A stretch of DNA of 64,000 nt from an uncultured Clostridium sp. (GTDB lineage: Bacteria; Bacillota; Clostridia; TANB77; CAG-508). Below, one piece after another: positions 2,097 to 63,928 of the stretch. The notes under the pieces were generated by a model, which was not told where the DNA came from, did not search any database, and worked only from the letters and a program-made list of their open reading frames with translations. Every line of letters starts with the position of its first letter. Position 1 is the first letter of the stretch. The stretch is taken from positions 128,031-192,030 of the forward strand of contig CAMJCT010000001.1 of the NCBI GenBank assembly GCA_946404215.1, read 5' to 3'. The translations under genes and the position numbers were made by a program.

Positions 2097-2118
2097 TTTA
2101 TCTCCTTTCCTGCTTTTG

Positions 2119-2159
2119 AGTGTTTTGGGTGTTTTTGGGGACACCTTCCAAAAGCACCT
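2119..2159 (+). repeat. REP-like element (core TTTTGGGGACACCTTCCAAAAGCACC) at the 3' flank of the RAYT gene
   Basis: The GGGGACACC core is shared with copies at 3025, 3147, 37548, 37640, 48633, 48675, 52250, 52287 and 63885. It is oriented opposite to the two copies on the other side of the transposase gene. Confidence 0.7.
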
Positions 2160-2942
2160 TTATTTTATCTTTAGTTTTTGCATACTACCTCTTGAAATAT
2201 CAAAAAATTTACTAATTTCAGTATATTTCAATCTACAATTTTCTTTAAGAAATATTATTAGTTCTTTAAAAATCTCTCTATTTGATAATATTTCTACAGT
2301 ATTAAGGCAAAACTCTTTTTTAAATTCTCGGATTCCTTCTAAAATATAACTATTAATCGTCTCCTCATTTTCATATTCAGCATCCATAAATCTTTTATCA
2401 AAACTTTGCTCAAATAGATTTGCATAATCACAATTTTCTCCAAATATTTCCTTCATAATTTTATATCTTGTAGGTCCTTCATTTTTTATATAATCATTAT
2501 AAGATGAAAATTCATAGTCTTCACAATTTAAAACCATTTGTGCTTTTACTGGATTATTATGTATGTATTTTATACAATTAATCAAATGTTTTATATCATA
2601 AATAGGCTCACTTTTATACCTATTTCTAAATAAAACTCCACATCTGTTTTCTTTTTTATTATACATTTGCGCATATAATAAATTAATCCTTTGCATAAAT
2701 TTTCCAAACTTTTCTATATCTTTTGTGTATACTAAAAAATGAACATGATTATTCATTATACAATATGCTAAAATTTCTAAATTATAGTCTTTTTTATTTT
2801 CTCTAATAATTTCTAGATATTTTTTTATATACTCTTTCTTATAAAAAATGAATTCTTTGTTTACTCCTTGAACCATTACATGCAAAAATTGTGCTTTGAT
2901 ATTTTTTCTTGCTATTCTTGGTTTGTTAATCACTCCTAACAT
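2160..2942 (-). CDS. REP-associated tyrosine transposase (RAYT; IS200/IS605 TnpA-like HUH-Y1) with a C-terminal HTH-like extension
   Basis: 260-aa ORF carrying the HUH motif NNHVHFLV and YIHNNPV. The C-terminal ~90 aa look HTH-like (KYTEISKFFDISRGSM). It is flanked by REP copies in inverted orientation. Confidence 0.75.
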   Translation of the reverse strand: MLGVINKPRIARKNIKAQFLHVMVQGVNKEFIFYKKEYIKKYLEIIRENKKDYNLEILAYCIMNNHVHFLVYTKDIEKFGKFMQRINLLYAQMYNKKENRCGVLFRNRYKSEPIYDIKHLINCIKYIHNNPVKAQMVLNCEDYEFSSYNDYIKNEGPTRYKIMKEIFGENCDYANLFEQSFDKRFMDAEYENEETINSYILEGIREFKKEFCLNTVEILSNREIFKELIIFLKENCRLKYTEISKFFDISRGSMQKLKIK

Positions 2943-3024
2943 AATGGGAGTTTTGTAATATAATTTTACAAAACCCCCTCAAATTTATATATATTATACA
3001 CCTTTTTTTTATTTTTTCAAGATA

Positions 3025-3070
3025 TTTTTGGGTGTTTTTGAAAGGTGTCCCCAAAAACACCTAAAAAACA
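3025..3070 (-). repeat. REP-like element (GGTGTCCCC orientation), 5' flank of RAYT
   Basis: TTGGGTGTTTTTGAAAGGTGTCCCCAAAAACACC, an inverted copy of the 2119 element. Confidence 0.7.
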
Positions 3071-3146
3071 TTGAAATAAGAATTAAATAATGTTAAAATA
3101 TATTTATGATTTTTTATGACAATAAATAATATAAATACAATAACAA

Positions 3147-3182
3147 TGGTGCTTTTTTAATGTGTCCCCAAAAGCACCTAAA
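3147..3182 (-). repeat. REP-like element, second copy 5' of RAYT
   Basis: GGTGCTTTTTTAATGTGTCCCCAAAAGCACC. It overlaps the spurious N-terminal extension (MSPKAPKTEQ) of the ATPase ORF in the track. Confidence 0.7.
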
Positions 3183-3194
3183 ACGGAGCAAAAT

Positions 3195-5567
3195 ATGAAT
3201 GAAAATATAATAAGATATACACCTAAAATTGATAAAGGGTTAAATGATGAACAAATAGAAAAAAGAAAAGAAGAAAATTTGATAAATTTAGATACCTGTC
3301 CACCAACTAAAAGTATAAAACGAATTTTATATGAGAATTTTTTTACATTATTTAATATTTTAAATATAGTTTTAGCATTATTAGTTTTTAGTGTTGGCTC
3401 ACGAAAAAACATGCTTTTTTTATTAATAGTTACAATAAATACAGCAATAAGTACAGTACAAGAAATTCATTCCAAAAGAATAATAGATAAGCTTTCTCTT
3501 ATGTCTGTATCAAAAGCTAAAGTTATTAGAAATGGCATAAAAAAAGATGTTTCTATACATGAATTAGTTTTAGATGATATTATTGAATTAAATACAGGAA
3601 ATCAGGTTGTAACAGATAGTATAATTCAATCTGGAGAAGTGCTTGTAAATGAAGCTTTTATTACTGGAGAACCTGATAGTATATCTAAAAAAGCAGGTGA
3701 TACTATACTTTCAGGTAGTTTTATTGTTAGTGGAAGGTGTATTGCAAAAGTTGAGCATATTGGAGAAGATAATTACACTGCTAAAATCTCTAGTGGTAGT
3801 AAATATGTTAAAAAAATCTCTTCAGATATAATGTCATCTCTTTCAAAAGTTATTACATTTTTAACTTTTGCAATTATTCCTATAGGTTGTGCCCTTTTAT
3901 ATAGCCAATTAAACTTGCAAGGTATTAATTATAAAGATGCAGTTGTTCAAACTGTTGCAGCAATTATAGGTATGATACCAGAAGGGCTTGTGCTACTGAC
4001 TAGCACTGTTTTAGCTGTTAGTGTAATTAGACTTTCCAAATCTAAAGTATTAGTTCAAGAATTATATTGTATTGAAACCTTGGCAAGGGTTGACACCTTA
4101 TGTTTAGATAAGACTGGTACTCTTACAGAAGGCTCCATGGAAGTGAAGGATTATATTGCAATAAGTAAAGACAAAGATGAAGTTTCAAATATATTATCAA
4201 ATATAGCAAAAGTTTCAGAAGATGAAAATAGCACGATTGAAGCAATTAGAAGTTATTTTACAGATATAACTTCTGAATTCACACCAATTACAAAAGTCGC
4301 GTTTTCTTCTCAATCAAAATGGTCTGGTTACTCTTTTGAGAATAAGGGTTCTTATATAATAGGAGCTCCTGAATTTGTTTTAAAAGACAATTTTAGTGAA
4401 TATAAAAATACTATTAATAACTATACGGAAGACTTCCGTGTTTTGGTACTAGCACACTCTCCAAATAATTTTAAAGACAAAAACCTGCCACAAAATATCC
4501 AATTAATTGGATTAGTTCTTATTTTAGATAAGATTAGAAGCAAAGCTCGTACCACATTAAATTATTTTGATAAACAAGGTGTAGATATAAAAATAATTTC
4601 TGGAGATAATCCTGTTACTGTTTCCAAAATTGCAAAACAAGTTGGTGTAAAAAGTTTTGATTCATATATAGATATGTCAAGTTTAAAAGAAGAATGTTAC
4701 AATTTAAATGAAATAGTTTCTAAATATACAATTTTTGGTAGAGTATCACCTACTCAAAAAAAAGATTTAATAAGAGCCTTAAAATTTAATGGCAAAACAG
4801 TTGCTATGACTGGTGATGGTGTAAACGATGTTTTAGCACTAAAAGAATCAGATTGTAGTATTGCAATGGCAAATGGTAGTGATGCAGCTAAAAATGTATC
4901 TCAATTGGTTCTTTTAGATTCGAATTTTGCCTCTATGCCTAAAGTAGTTACTGAAGGAAGACGAACAATAAATAATATACAAAGGTCTGCATCATTATTT
5001 TTAGTAAAAACAATATATTCCTGTGTTCTTGCAGTATTTTTCTTATTCCTTGCCCAAGAGTTCCCTTTCATACCTATACAATTAAGCTTAATAAGCACTG
5101 CATGTATTGGAATACCATCATTTTTGCTAGCATTAGAGCCAAATAAAGAGAAAATTAAAGGTAATTTTTTAAAAAATGTTATATCTAAAGCTATGCCAAC
5201 AGCCATTACTGTTATAATGAATATTTTATATTTAACATTTTTAAGCAAATACAATTTAATAACTATTGACTGCTATCATAGTTTATGTGTGGTTTCTACT
5301 GGTGTTTGTGGTCTTACTTTATTATTCACACTTGCATTAAAAAGAAAAAGTGAAAAAATAAAATTGCCTTTCTCCATATATAGATTAACACTAGCAATTC
5401 TAATGACATTGTTATTCTTCTTGGAAATACACTTTTTAGGTTGGTTTTTTAATATAGTACCTTTACAACTAATTTGGGATAAAATTATAAGAATTGTTAT
5501 TGTTTCTGTTTTAAACTTTATAGTTTTAAATTTTGTATTTATGAAATTTTTGAAAATAGATAAATAA
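3195..5567 (+). CDS. Cation-transporting P-type ATPase (P2-type, Ca2+/Mg2+-like)
   Basis: DKTGTLT phosphorylation motif and TGDGVNDVLALKESD hinge. N-terminal cation-ATPase domain and multiple TM segments. The start was moved to ATG 3195, which follows a GGAG RBS; the track start at 3162 translates the REP. Confidence 0.85.
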   Translation: MNENIIRYTPKIDKGLNDEQIEKRKEENLINLDTCPPTKSIKRILYENFFTLFNILNIVLALLVFSVGSRKNMLFLLIVTINTAISTVQEIHSKRIIDKLSLMSVSKAKVIRNGIKKDVSIHELVLDDIIELNTGNQVVTDSIIQSGEVLVNEAFITGEPDSISKKAGDTILSGSFIVSGRCIAKVEHIGEDNYTAKISSGSKYVKKISSDIMSSLSKVITFLTFAIIPIGCALLYSQLNLQGINYKDAVVQTVAAIIGMIPEGLVLLTSTVLAVSVIRLSKSKVLVQELYCIETLARVDTLCLDKTGTLTEGSMEVKDYIAISKDKDEVSNILSNIAKVSEDENSTIEAIRSYFTDITSEFTPITKVAFSSQSKWSGYSFENKGSYIIGAPEFVLKDNFSEYKNTINNYTEDFRVLVLAHSPNNFKDKNLPQNIQLIGLVLILDKIRSKARTTLNYFDKQGVDIKIISGDNPVTVSKIAKQVGVKSFDSYIDMSSLKEECYNLNEIVSKYTIFGRVSPTQKKDLIRALKFNGKTVAMTGDGVNDVLALKESDCSIAMANGSDAAKNVSQLVLLDSNFASMPKVVTEGRRTINNIQRSASLFLVKTIYSCVLAVFFLFLAQEFPFIPIQLSLISTACIGIPSFLLALEPNKEKIKGNFLKNVISKAMPTAITVIMNILYLTFLSKYNLITIDCYHSLCVVSTGVCGLTLLFTLALKRKSEKIKLPFSIYRLTLAILMTLLFFLEIHFLGWFFNIVPLQLIWDKIIRIVIVSVLNFIVLNFVFMKFLKIDK

Positions 5568-9234: not shown

Positions 9235-9885
9235 CTACATTTTTCTAAACACTCCTGCAACTTTTCCAAGTATTTCACAATTTGGAACAATGATTGGATC
9301 CATAGTTGAATTTTCTGGTTGAAGACGTATATGATCTTTTTCTTTATAAAATGTTTTTACTGTAGCTTCTTCTCCAATTAAGGCTACCACTATTTCTCCA
9401 TTGTTAGCAATGTTTTGTTTTTTTACTAATATGTAATCTCCATCTAAAATTCCAGCTTCTATCATGCTTTCTCCTCTAACTGTAAGCATGAAACTTTCTG
9501 AATTTCCAACAAAATCCACTGGAATTGGAAAAGTATCTGTAACATTTTCGACTGCTAAAATTGGTTCTCCAGCAGTTATTTTCCCTATAATTGGAACCTC
9601 TACTAATTCCTTTTGAGTATAAAAGTCTTTACTTGATGTTTTCTTTACTTCTCCTGAACCACCTTTTAGCAAACGTAATGTTCTACCCTTTTTGTCTTGT
9701 TTTTTTATATAACCTTTTTCATCTAATTTTGATAAATAACCATGTACTGTTGCTGTAGAACTTAATCCTACAGCTTTTCCTATTTCTCTTACAGATGGTG
9801 GGTAACCTTGTGTCATAATTTGCTTTTCTATGAATTTTAATATAGCTCTTTCTCTTTTATTTAGTTCTGGTTTTTTTCTTGGCAT
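9235..9885 (-). CDS. lexA: LexA repressor
   Basis: N-terminal wHTH ([22 protein letters not shown]), Ala-Gly cleavage region and S24 peptidase domain ([11 protein letters not shown]...K). Start MPRKK follows a GGAG RBS. Confidence 0.9.
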
Positions 9886-9915
9886 AATATTCACTCCATT
9901 CTCTTATTTTTTCAT

Positions 9916-39878: not shown

Positions 39879-40382
39879 TTATTCATCATCTAACGTTTCT
39901 TTTTCTTCATTTGTATTCTCTTCTTGTTCATTTTTTTTATATTTATTCATATCTTTTATCTCTTCCTTTTTATTTTGCATTTGTTTATTCATCATGTTAT
40001 TTGCTTTTTCAATTAAATCTGGCATATAATCAAGTAATTTATCTAATGATGATGTGTGGTTTAATGGCATCAATTTAACATTATTGGACTGTATTATTAG
40101 AAAAGCTATAGGATTAATTGTAACACCTGCACCTGAACCACCACCAAATGGTAATCTATATTGAATAGCTTCTTCCTTATCTTTTTTTGTATATTCATCT
40201 ATAGTTTCACCTTTGAATTCGCTCCCTCCAGCAGCAAAACCAAAAGAAACTTTGGATATAGGTATAATTACAACATTATTTGATGTCTCTATAGGCTCGC
40301 CTATTATAGTATTTACATCTATCATATCTTGAAGACTATTCATAGCTGTAATCATAAGACCCTCTATTGGATGTTCGCTCAT
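39879..40382 (-). CDS. ytfJ: Sporulation protein YtfJ/GerW family
   Basis: MSEHPIEGLMITAMNSLQDMIDVNTIIGEPIETSNNVVIIPISKVSFGFAAGGSEF, with an acidic/basic C-terminal tail. Confidence 0.8.
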   Translation of the reverse strand: MSEHPIEGLMITAMNSLQDMIDVNTIIGEPIETSNNVVIIPISKVSFGFAAGGSEFKGETIDEYTKKDKEEAIQYRLPFGGGSGAGVTINPIAFLIIQSNNVKLMPLNHTSSLDKLLDYMPDLIEKANNMMNKQMQNKKEEIKDMNKYKKNEQEENTNEEKETLDDE

Positions 40383-46805: not shown

Positions 46806-46906
46806 TGTTACTGGTCGTTACTAGTCAGCCTATCGTTATTTTAATGCCCGCGCCAGTGATTACTATATAAATATTTTGAGAATTTATCGAATGCGACTGG
46901 TATAAC
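46806..46906. repeat. MITE-like element, copy B (partial; the 3' arm is replaced by the rny terminator)
   Basis: Shares GTTACTGGTCGTTACTAGTCAGCCTATCGTTATTTTAATGCCCGCGCCAGTGATTACTATATAAATATTTTGAGAAT with copies A and C. Confidence 0.5.
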
Positions 46907-48611: not shown

Positions 48612-48692
48612 AGTGTTTTTTAGCATGTTTTTAGAGACACCTACCATAAAAACATCTTTAGGTGTTTTTGATAAGTGTCCCCTTTTTCACCT
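48612..48692. repeat. Inverted pair of REP-like elements (degenerate) between ileS and rny
   Basis: TTTTTAGAGACACCTACCATAAAAACATCTTTAGGTGTTTTTGATAAGTGTCCCC. Confidence 0.55.
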
Positions 48693-63130: not shown

Positions 63131-63874
63131 ATGAAAGAACTAAAAATATTATACTTATATCCAGATATTTTAGAGCTTTATGGAGATTATGGAAATATTC
63201 AAGTTTTAAAATATAGGTTAGAAAAAAGAGGATTCAAAGCTATTATAGAACCTTATTCAATAGGTGATAATGCCCCAGATTTTAAAAAATATGATTTGGT
63301 TTTTGCAGGTGGTGGTGCTGACCAAGAACAAAGTATTTTATCAGAAGATTTACTAAAATATAAAGAAAATATTAAAGAAGCTATTCAAAGTGGTGTATTC
63401 TTTTTGCTTATTTGTGGTGCATATCAGCTATTTGGGAAATACTATAAAGGTGTAGAAGGAAATATTATTCCTGGATTAGAAATATTTGATTATTATACAG
63501 AGGCTATTGAAGATAGAAAAAAAAGATGTATTGGAAATATTATTATAGAAGCAGAATTGAATAAAAAGAAAACCAAAATAATAGGGTTCGAAAATCATGG
63601 TGGACAAACTTTTGATGTAAAATCTCCTTTTGGAAATGTATTGTTCGGAAATGGCAATAAATTGGGAGATAATCAAGAAGGTTTTTTTCAAAATAATGTA
63701 ATTGCTACTTACTTACATGGACCGTTACTTTCTAAAAACCCTGAACTTTCTGATTATATTATTAGATATTGCTTTAAAAGAAAGTATAATGAAGAAATAA
63801 CTTTAGAGCCTCTAAATGATGAATTTGAAAATAAATGCAGACTTCAATTAATTAATAGATTTGATTTAGGGTGA
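63131..63874 (+). CDS. gatD: Lipid II isoglutaminyl synthase glutaminase subunit GatD (CobQ-type GATase)
   Basis: Catalytic Cys in LICGAYQL; His near the C-terminus; partner of murT. Confidence 0.85.
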   Translation: MKELKILYLYPDILELYGDYGNIQVLKYRLEKRGFKAIIEPYSIGDNAPDFKKYDLVFAGGGADQEQSILSEDLLKYKENIKEAIQSGVFFLLICGAYQLFGKYYKGVEGNIIPGLEIFDYYTEAIEDRKKRCIGNIIIEAELNKKKTKIIGFENHGGQTFDVKSPFGNVLFGNGNKLGDNQEGFFQNNVIATYLHGPLLSKNPELSDYIIRYCFKRKYNEEITLEPLNDEFENKCRLQLINRFDLG

Positions 63875-63915
63875 TTTTGGGTGATTTTGGGGACACCTTA
63901 AAAAAACACCTAAAA
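63868..63915 (+). repeat. REP-like element at the 3' end of gatD
   Basis: GGGTGATTTTGGGTGATTTTGGGGACACCTTAAAAAAACACC. Confidence 0.65.
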
Positions 63916-63928
63916 AAAATTTAAAAAA

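Follow-up and report, generated by a model that had tools for sequence, protein, structure and literature searches.

Repetitive extragenic palindromes (REPs) and REP-associated tyrosine transposases (RAYTs) have been studied almost entirely in Proteobacteria, as within-genome replicators (REP doublets forming hairpins, REPINs) and domesticated transposases; Nunvar 2010, Bertels & Rainey 2011, Ton-Hoang 2012 and Messing 2012 (PDB 4ER8) are used here as sources for comparison. RAYT-like genes that are flanked by terminal inverted repeats (TIRs), and not by REPs of the GTAG type, were named TIRYTs and are part of TIRtrons; many of these TIRs share the word GGGGWSAS, some are self-complementary, and moderately abundant families with singles, dimers and clusters exist among them (Di Nocera, De Gregorio & Rocco 2013, BMC Genomics 14:522, PMC3733652). 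TIRYTs were equated with subclass 2.1 of the TnpA_Y1 enzymes, which has a C-terminal helix-turn-helix (HTH) and near whose genes REP-like sequences were not found (Quentin, Siguier, Chandler & Fichant 2018, BMC Genomics 19:475, PMC6006769). No mention of Clostridium or Clostridia was found in the supplements of both papers. The only relevant statement on RAYT/REPIN in Firmicutes that was found in the literature is one line on Group 1 RAYTs in Clostridia (Bertels et al. 2017, PMC5581495), a group rated among the RAYTs that most resemble insertion sequences (IS). Here, a 64-kb stretch of DNA from an uncultured Clostridium sp. (contig CAMJCT010000001.1, positions 128,031 to 192,030; referred to as the window) was analyzed, in which a gene for a Y1 HUH tyrosine enzyme lies between inverted palindromic units that also occur dispersed over the window. 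It is likely that this locus represents a TIRtron, on the TIRYT branch of the REPtron idea, with REPIN-like non-autonomous derivatives. The family works like a RAYT/REPIN system and belongs to the TIRYT/TIRtron kind, and neither to canonical RAYT/REP nor to IS200. This kind of system is already described, and the novelty put forward in a first-pass annotation of the sequence was overstated, given the Group 1 RAYTs in Clostridia (PMC5581495) and 'dau 2153', which is part of the TIRYT set (PMC3733652). The window holds a clear Firmicute example of it, in which the C-terminal helical domain is specific to the lineage.

The enzyme gene and the units that bracket it are arranged as follows.

2160..2942, - strand: gene for a TIRYT / RAYT-like Y1 HUH tyrosine enzyme of 260 aa
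Within this enzyme: catalytic core at about residues 8-152, followed by a helical linker and by a five-helix C-terminal domain at about residues 193-258
2123..2167, + strand: downstream unit, reverse relative to the gene; nhmmer E 4.3e-13; overlaps the enzyme stop codon; addA starts 27 nt downstream of it (2096)
3019..3067, - strand: upstream unit 1, forward relative to the gene; nhmmer E 4.4e-15; core 110 nt before the ATG; abuts a promoter-like -35 hexamer
3145..3184, - strand: upstream unit 2, forward, with core GGGGACACA; nhmmer E 5.4e-12; the divergent P-type ATPase gene has its ATG (3195) 11 nt beyond the unit end

Read along the gene, the order is forward unit 3184..3145, forward unit 3067..3019, gene, and reverse unit 2167..2123. 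On the + strand, GGGGACACC is found at the 3' side of the gene (2137) and GGTGTCCCC twice at its 5' side (3044, and 3161 with one mismatch). One unit on the 3' side and two of opposite orientation on the 5' side is what the first-pass annotation had proposed, and both the motif and nhmmer recovered this layout. The neighbors are ordinary chromosomal genes, addA (AddA-type UvrD helicase, start 2096, - strand) and a P-type ATPase gene (start 3195, + strand), and neither tnpB nor another IS gene lies beside the enzyme gene. It had also been claimed that the gene is not flanked by IS ends. This is borne out, as no left or right IS end (LE/RE) was found at the locus, whose flanking repeats are inverted and not asymmetric, and the gene occurs once in the 64 kb and at most once per metagenome-assembled genome (MAG) among the fragments examined.

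The product of the open reading frame (ORF) 2160..2942 matched the Pfam family Y1_Tnp (E 4.4e-12, residues 20-130). H66-V-H68 and Y126 are invariant in 28 of 28 homologs with 55-83% identity, as are the block FRNRY and the motif Y-I-x-x-N-P-V. The HUH motif and the tyrosine are separated by about 58 aa, a serine motif FSSY follows the tyrosine helix, and the signatures MPRxAR..., H-x-QRGN-like, (A/C)xxMxNHVH(L/F)L, YIxxNPV and (W/F)SS can be recognized. Among the NCBIfam models REP_Tyr_transpos (NF047646) ranked first with 69.6 bits, short of its cut-off of 80. The model transpos_IS200 reached 19.9 bits against a cut-off of 55, and together with the inverted ends, the single copy and the neighbors addA and P-type ATPase this led to the rejection of an ordinary IS200. 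The only sequence relative in the PDB is E. coli TnpArep (4ER8; E 0.025, 19% identity). An AlphaFold2 model of the enzyme (predicted local distance difference test (pLDDT) 85, predicted template modeling score (pTM) 0.80) also had 4ER8 as its best structural match in Foldseek (E 9.7e-7, root mean square deviation 2.9 Å over 139 columns, TM-score 0.69 on the target), and the TnpA structures of IS608 and ISDra2 ranked after it (E 1e-4 to 1e-3). In TnpArep the GTAG foot is read by W94, Q95, W99, E100, H101 and R104 (PMC6006769). When the window protein was aligned to 4ER8, these positions were occupied by F, R, K, S, E and Y.

In a phmmer search against the 36 sequences of Additional file 5 of Di Nocera et al., 19 long TIRYTs scored 50-88 bits (E 1e-16 to 1e-27), short Acidobacteria TIRYTs 19-37 bits, and classical RAYTs at most 27 bits, with 17 for E. 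coli b228; the division of this file into RAYT and TIRYT blocks is our own reading, as the boxes are lost in its text version. One member of the TIRYT set, 'dau 2153', we take to be from Desulforudis audaxviator, a member of the Clostridia. By profile, by structure and by these TIRYT/RAYT scores, the protein does not cluster with IS200 TnpA. Judged from its sequence, the window protein is neither an IS200 TnpA nor a canonical RAYT of GTAG REPs. The designation RAYT that had been given to it is therefore apt for a REP-associated type of enzyme with a dispersed repeat, but not in the strict sense, since the score remains below the REP_Tyr_transpos cut-off and both the GTAG foot and the residues reading it are missing. 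In the protein database 670 cluster representatives were found at E <= 0.001, and the named ones are all 'Clostridia bacterium' MAG proteins.

The motif GGGGACACC occurs six times exactly in the window, compared to 0.05 expected, and none of 100 shuffles reached six; a chance origin was rejected on these grounds. When one mismatch was allowed, eight sites were found against 1.0 expected. From these eight sites a unit profile was built and run over the window with nhmmer, which gave eight strong units (E 4e-15 to 1e-9) and two degenerate ones (E 0.003 and 0.009). The first-pass annotation had counted at least 10 copies in 64 kb, a number that is reached only when the two weak units are included. 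All ten units are located between genes, as it had stated. The AT-richness that it had noted corresponds to a GC content of 28.1% for the window. Away from the enzyme gene, the following units were identified.

37551..37668: head-to-head doublet; forward unit 37551-37594 (+), 27-nt spacer, reverse unit 37622-37668 (-); nhmmer E 3e-13 and 7e-14
48625..48692: degenerate head-to-head doublet; 48625-48666 (+) with E 0.0026 and 48648-48692 (-) with E 1.1e-9; fold weak (z -1.5)
52238..52317, + strand: direct pair; strong unit 52238-52284 (E 1.2e-13) and degenerate unit 52286-52317 (E 0.0094)
63875..63921, + strand: single unit; nhmmer E 1.5e-14; hairpin -7.2 kcal/mol, z -1.9

The inverted pairs proposed at 37545-37675 and 48612-48692, the direct pair at 52245-52315 and the single unit at 63868-63915 were in this way all recovered. 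The first doublet is intergenic and lies upstream of a VanW-like gene, its 38-nt arms are 97% complementary, and as a whole it folds to -41.2 kcal/mol (z -12.5). The second is situated between the ileS stop (48697) and the rny start (48497), the direct pair upstream of ileS and downstream of a List_Bact_rpt protein gene, and the single unit begins 1 nt past the stop of a GatD-like (GATase_3) gene. A further, degenerate site had been suggested near 36725-36775; it was not recovered by the unit profile, is unproven and was not counted. At 36735-36790, just upstream of a MiaB-like radical-SAM gene, two motif-like stretches, ccatGGGGACAGTCCttatgg and ccaaaGGGACACTCCttt, with words resembling GGGGACAG or GGGACAC can be seen, to which the profile had no match in its run over the window. 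They could be remnants of units, or else belong to a second sub-family that has diverged.

The repeat is 35-45 nt long and its consensus in the window is (T)TTTrGGTGnTTTTGGGGACACCTTnnAAAAAnCACCTAAAAA. The related genomes show it as a clean hairpin with an 11-bp stem, NNNTTTTTGG/CCAAAAANNN, around the 9-nt loop GGACACCTT; the stem is A/T-rich and closes the invariant loop GGGGACACCTT. The foot of the unit is G(G/C/A)TG followed by T5, and a 5' GT[AG]G foot is absent from the unit sequences. Covariation was observed in the outer stem among 131 distinct unit sequences, with G-C/C-G at positions 3-33, C-G/A-T at 4-32 and T-A/C-G at 7-29, and for each of these three pairs none of 500 column shuffles reached the observed pairing; the stem positions nearer to the loop are fixed by the search pattern and are uninformative in this respect. 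Folded as single-stranded DNA (ssDNA), consensus units reached -11 to -12 kcal/mol (z -4.3) and the three window units flanking the gene had z values of -2.9 to -4.0: an 11-bp hairpin of -8.3 kcal/mol (z -2.9) for the downstream unit, -11 kcal/mol (z -3.2) for upstream unit 1 and -8.1 kcal/mol (z -4.0) for upstream unit 2. A change from CC to AA in the 3' arm has left several of the dispersed window units unable to fold by themselves (z -0.1 to -0.7). Rfam, searched with the whole window at gathering thresholds and permissively on 2100-3200, had no match to the units, and only chance miRNA-level matches appeared.

Whether enzyme and repeat go together could be judged from ten distinct loci, namely the window and the related loci L002, L005, L036, L050, L059 and L091-L094, whose proteins are 50-69% identical to the window enzyme. 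In all ten, the gene is preceded by one or more forward units at a distance of 62-227 nt and followed by a reverse unit 4-111 nt past its stop codon, and a wrongly oriented unit was found at none of them. The position of upstream unit 1 is conserved at the 10 homolog loci. Where the core deviates, the same variant is present on both sides of the gene, TAGGGACGCG in L002/L003, GGGGACACT in L091 and AGGGACACC in L005, and the changed core AGGGACGCG of L002 is likewise seen on both sides. This joint variation of gene and flanks argues strongly that enzyme and repeat belong together. In the window the core GGGGACAC, of the GGGGWSAS type, is present in forward orientation at -110 and -227 and in reverse at +15, and most homolog loci fit GGGGWSAS or deviate from it by one base, which suggests that this conserved word could be the recognition element. 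The genes next to the enzyme gene differ in every species examined.

The pairing of the copies was analyzed for neighboring units at most 200 nt apart in the window and the related loci. There are 32 distinct close pairs in forward-then-reverse (head-to-head) order, none in reverse-then-forward (tail-to-tail) order and nine direct ones, so that pairing in the manner of bacterial interspersed mosaic elements (BIMEs), which the first-pass annotation had raised, is apparent in one orientation. This is the orientation of the units bracketing the gene, so that a doublet resembles the full element minus its gene. Repeated doublets, complete with spacer, were found at more than one site in related MAGs, namely two copies of 95% identity in L055 and three of 83-88% in L010. 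Their flanks are about 60% identical, which is the background for this composition, and are thus unrelated. This recurrence, seen in related MAGs and not within the window's own genome, is REPIN or MITE (miniature transposable element with inverted repeats) behavior, and the inverted doublets appear to be the replicating unit, as in REPINs.

One scan of 185,579 species genomes for the 19-base core TTTTGGGGACACCTTNNAAAA found 82 stretches. The core is not rare genome-wide: exact matches number 42 in one related MAG (BRZ_IL__bin4), followed by 21, 10, 10, 7, 3, 3, 2 and 2 in others, all of them uncultured Clostridia MAGs. About a dozen such MAGs, of gut and rumen, carry it, and the named sources are ruminant gut. 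Single matches occur five times in unrelated phyla, as could be expected by chance. No match was found in the viral contigs scanned for the core, and hence there is no phage link. The enzymes of the core-bearing MAGs are only 50-62% identical to that of the window, and there is almost no nucleotide similarity to the window, which indicates that the same core persisted across a deep divergence. With the unit profile, 160 units were counted in the window and the retrieved loci, of which 137 are outside crude ORFs in DNA that is 84% ORF. A preference for convergent contexts was not observed (25 convergent vs 18 divergent). The other 23 units, in loci L009-L088, overlap a crude ORF by more than half their length; these could be over-extended ORF calls or genuine in-frame insertions as reported for REPs.

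Differences between samples were confined to the units. L001, a 1,293-nt contig of another sample, is identical to the window across the enzyme gene and the addA start, so that the place of the gene and its sequence (100% identity) are shared by two samples of the species, and the differences are a 9-nt indel and one substitution in the outer arm of the downstream unit, together with changes in the upstream unit that sit at the contig end and are less reliable. L002 and L003 encode an identical enzyme (P0028) and have the downstream neighborhood in common, and the upstream unit, which occurs once in L002 (9894), is found in L003 (5463-5560) as a 56-nt tandem duplicate. Partial tandem copies of the 5' arm plus GGGG, for example (TGTTTTTGGGGA)n and mostly with a 12-nt period, were found in 29 of 147 units, compared to eight in a downstream control. 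These stutters sit on the outer side of the unit, in the window at 2115-2136 (downstream unit) and at 63868-63888 (a 10-nt duplication of the 5' arm), in many units of L010, L020, L068, L069, L087 and others, and in L005 at 9849-9896, and their repeat number varies between samples of one species, as seen in the 9-nt indel between the window and L001. Slippage is the simplest explanation; an attractive alternative is that they would be the footprint of cleavage and rejoining after GGGGA. The short-read contigs L001 and L095 (run SRR32661408) both end at position 1 inside a unit, and the unit preceding the VanW-like gene (37551..37668) was also found in another sample, in a contig that breaks off at this point. 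Two contigs that end inside units indicate, as a practical point, that these hairpin repeats break short-read assemblies of the lineage.

Between upstream unit 1 and the start codon of the enzyme gene, two further elements were identified.

2993..3020, - strand: promoter-like site TTGAAA-16 nt-TATAAT; 11 of 12 matches in a consensus scan; the -35 hexamer starts at the end of upstream unit 1
2946..2978, - strand: leader hairpin GGGGGTTTTGTAA...TTACAAAACTCCC between the -10 hexamer and the start codon; RNA fold -17.4 kcal/mol, z -6.0

The abutment of unit and -35 hexamer (AAAACAGC|TTGACA and similar) is repeated in nine other loci, which suggests that the upstream unit may serve as an operator for autoregulation. 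An equivalent leader hairpin is present in 10 of 10 loci with differing stems (-16 to -21 kcal/mol, z -5.6 to -8.1). These hairpins have a 5' foot GGGG(G) in common and are usually followed by a U-rich tail; single-sequence folds were used, as MAFFT could not align the differing stems and RNAalifold was for this reason uninformative on covariation. The hairpin is probably a leader terminator or attenuator, or a 5' stabilizer. It resembles in this the strong leader hairpins by which the synthesis of IS200 transposase is repressed. The start codon of the window gene is uncertain: ATG 2942 comes directly after the hairpin and without a Shine-Dalgarno sequence (2930-2942, - strand), and homologs begin at MPRxAR after AGGAGG, where the window has AAA, in addition to AGGAG within codons 2-4.

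The C-terminal extension, which had been given as about 90 aa and HTH-like, does exist, comprising about 105 aa with a helical linker and the five-helix domain, but its HTH-like character is only tentative. When modeled alone, the C-terminal region formed a confident five-helix bundle (pLDDT 89). Foldseek with this model returned only non-significant HTH matches (sigma region 4, LsrR/DeoR, Fis and ParB, all with E > 1). Among the 28 family members the Pfam matches to HTH families were weak and scattered, with HTH_23 in two (best E 3.5e-4), HTH_24 in four and Sigma70_r4_2 in three. No similarity to Bac_DnaA_C was found with Pfam on the window protein and the 28 members or with Foldseek on the domain. 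An assignment to Bac_DnaA_C or another HTH family was dropped in view of the scattered Pfam matches and the Foldseek E values. When the C-terminal 76 aa were compared with 1.84 billion cluster representatives, only 35 proteins were found, always with the match at their C-termini, and the domain is therefore specific to the family. The alignments to the TIRYTs of Di Nocera et al. span residues 8-152 and end there, so that the C-terminal third is not common to those TIRYTs, and the extension of the reference TIRYTs (...LGxxxFxxxIE...RGRPRK) is not shared by the C-terminus of the window protein.

A mechanism can be modeled on E. coli TnpArep and IS608 TnpA. By analogy with these, the enzyme would bind the unit as an ssDNA hairpin, probably reading the conserved loop and the GGGG tract and not a 5' GTAG foot, and ssDNA would be cleaved and re-joined through Tyr126 and a His66/His68 metal site. 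Such cleavage and rejoining could copy or move doublets as non-autonomous units, and the same reaction could give the short arm stutters at unit edges. Expression of the enzyme gene appears restrained, with a promoter that abuts the upstream unit and a strong terminator-like leader hairpin after it, and the C-terminal helical domain is presumed to bind DNA. A wider reading, which as a whole we consider rather doubtful, would join these points: a TIRYT clade reported without REP-like partners would sustain REPIN-like replicators across an uncultured gut Clostridia lineage by recognizing the invariant loop GGGGACACC; this loop would carry the GGGGWSAS word of proteobacterial and acidobacterial TIRs in place of a 5' GTAG foot, which would make loop-reading recognition of ssDNA hairpins ancient and common to several phyla; the 12-nt (TGTTTTTGGGGA)n stutters would mark cleavage and rejoining just after GGGGA; and autoregulation would come about through a circuit of the C-terminal domain, the promoter next to the unit and the terminator in the leader.

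Other explanations were weighed against a TIRtron with REPIN-like derivatives. The locus could be an autonomous selfish IS-like transposon, in which the gene moves together with its TIRs, the doublets are deletion derivatives of the MITE type and nothing is domesticated. The changing gene neighborhood in every species examined would fit this, as would the doublets, which keep the end orientation of the element, and the ranking of Group 1 RAYTs, also found in Clostridia, among the most IS-like (PMC5581495). However, the units far outnumber the gene, of which the 64 kb hold a single copy and each MAG, in the fragments examined, no more than one, two samples of the species have it at an unchanged position with 100% identity, and non-synteny at 50-69% protein identity can be explained by genome rearrangement, which makes such a transposon unlikely. 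Very unlikely is a canonical RAYT/REP system (REPtron) of the E. coli/Pseudomonas type, in which REP hairpins are read via a 5' GTAG foot. It has the same layout, in that inverted extragenic palindromes enclose a single gene, the family is dispersed and doublets occur, and both the best NCBIfam model (REP_Tyr_transpos) and the best structural match (4ER8) point to it; yet the 69.6 bits stay below the equivalog cut-off of 80, no GT[AG]G is present at the hairpin foot, the GTAG-reading residues are replaced, and the protein is far closer to TIRYTs than to classical RAYTs and has an extra C-terminal region of about 105 aa.

That the repeats are host cis-elements, such as hairpins at transcript ends or for mRNA stability or protein binding sites, with the enzyme gene merely situated among them, seems extremely improbable. 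The units are strictly intergenic, often directly follow stop codons (63875; 48692, at 5 nt from the stop of ileS), and one of them scores as terminator-like, but their fixed inverted flanking of the gene in 10 of 10 species with matching variant cores is foreign to this explanation, as are the missing preference for convergent over divergent contexts (25 vs 18), the lack of an Rfam family match, the A/T-rich stems and the fact that most units have no T-run after them on the transcribed strand. Some points also weigh against the TIRtron reading itself. That the enzyme acts on these units and that the units are mobile in this genome is what we infer from the related systems, and beyond architecture, association and doublet copying the mechanistic steps would hold by homology. 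Part of the family in the window may consist of decaying relics, given the units that do not fold alone. The related loci were retrieved by the core pattern itself, and the invariance of the core across MAGs is thus partly ascertainment, from which the statistics on stem, orientation and position are free. The single gene copy applies to 64 kb of the window genome and to MAG fragments. For the C-terminal domain, neither structure nor sequence gave a significant match to DNA-binding domains that are known, and the role proposed for it is a guess. Finally, if the family belongs to subclass 2.1, it would be atypical, given that no REP-like sequences were reported there.

If the TIRtron reading with this placement is correct, the family is a counter-example to the published impression of subclass 2.1 as lacking REP-like partners, and a clean Firmicute example of the TIRYT branch is added to a field centered on Proteobacteria. 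The family is compact, easily recognized and constrained in orientation. Its units could be usable as strain markers in these MAG lineages, and predictions of intergenic regulatory elements should mask or annotate them.

Some features of the window stand apart from the enzyme and its repeats. A gene for the sporulation protein Spore_YtfJ is located at 39879-40382 (- strand), and with SpoVAC, SpoVAD, SpoIIID and SipL in the locus of the relative L002 the earlier designation of the host as a spore-former is plausible. A 56-nt element occurs twice on the same strand with 91% identity, at 9969-10024 upstream of lexA (9235-9894, - strand) and at 46807-46862 upstream of a 115-aa ORF beside ymdB and rny. 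Rfam has no family for this element; it could be a regulatory region that both sites have in common. At 53576-56056 (- strand) lie two acetate kinase paralogs (396 and 409 aa) in tandem, with about 71-75% DNA identity and a 1,251-nt period. A T-box leader (16861-17093, - strand; Rfam 114.7 bits) precedes a valS-like class I tRNA synthetase gene (14041-16719), and none was found at the Rfam gathering threshold in the 488 nt upstream of ileS that hold the units 52238-52317.

Compared with the described systems, the locus has in common with the TnpA of IS200/IS605 elements (IS608, ISDra2, IS200) the Y1 HUH fold and the ssDNA hairpin substrates presumed for both, but here the ends are inverted, tnpB is missing, and a single gene copy is accompanied by many gene-less repeats. 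With E. coli TnpArep (RAYT, YafM) and its REP/BIME sequences and with the RAYT/REPIN systems of Pseudomonas it shares the single gene between inverted extragenic palindromes, the best structural match and the inverted doublets. It differs from them by an identity of only 19%, the absent GTAG foot and different recognition residues, the extra C-terminal domain, and a conserved element that is the loop, on an A/T-rich stem. The doublets resemble those of the REPIN type (Bertels & Rainey 2011) in that two inverted units form one long hairpin that is copied to unrelated sites.

The family probably belongs to TnpA_Y1 subclass 2.1, with which the HUH-to-Tyr spacing, the FSSY serine motif, the long protein with a C-terminal helical or HTH-like extension and the unconserved GTAG-reading residues agree, whereas the flanking units are clear hairpins with dispersed copies and similarity to Bac_DnaA_C is lacking. 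Closest are the TIRtrons, which likewise consist of a gene for a long RAYT-like Y1 enzyme flanked by TIRs at a similar distance, and the core GGGGACAC fits their motif GGGGWSAS. In contrast to that set, mainly from Proteobacteria and Acidobacteria, the host is an uncultured low-GC gut Clostridia lineage, every unit is itself a REP-like hairpin whose stem covaries, the head-to-head order of the doublets is strict, and the C-terminal region of about 105 aa does not align to theirs. What the family adds to the known kind is the strict doublet orientation, the invariant loop with its covarying stem, the stutters, the conserved leader hairpin and the lineage-specific C-terminal domain.

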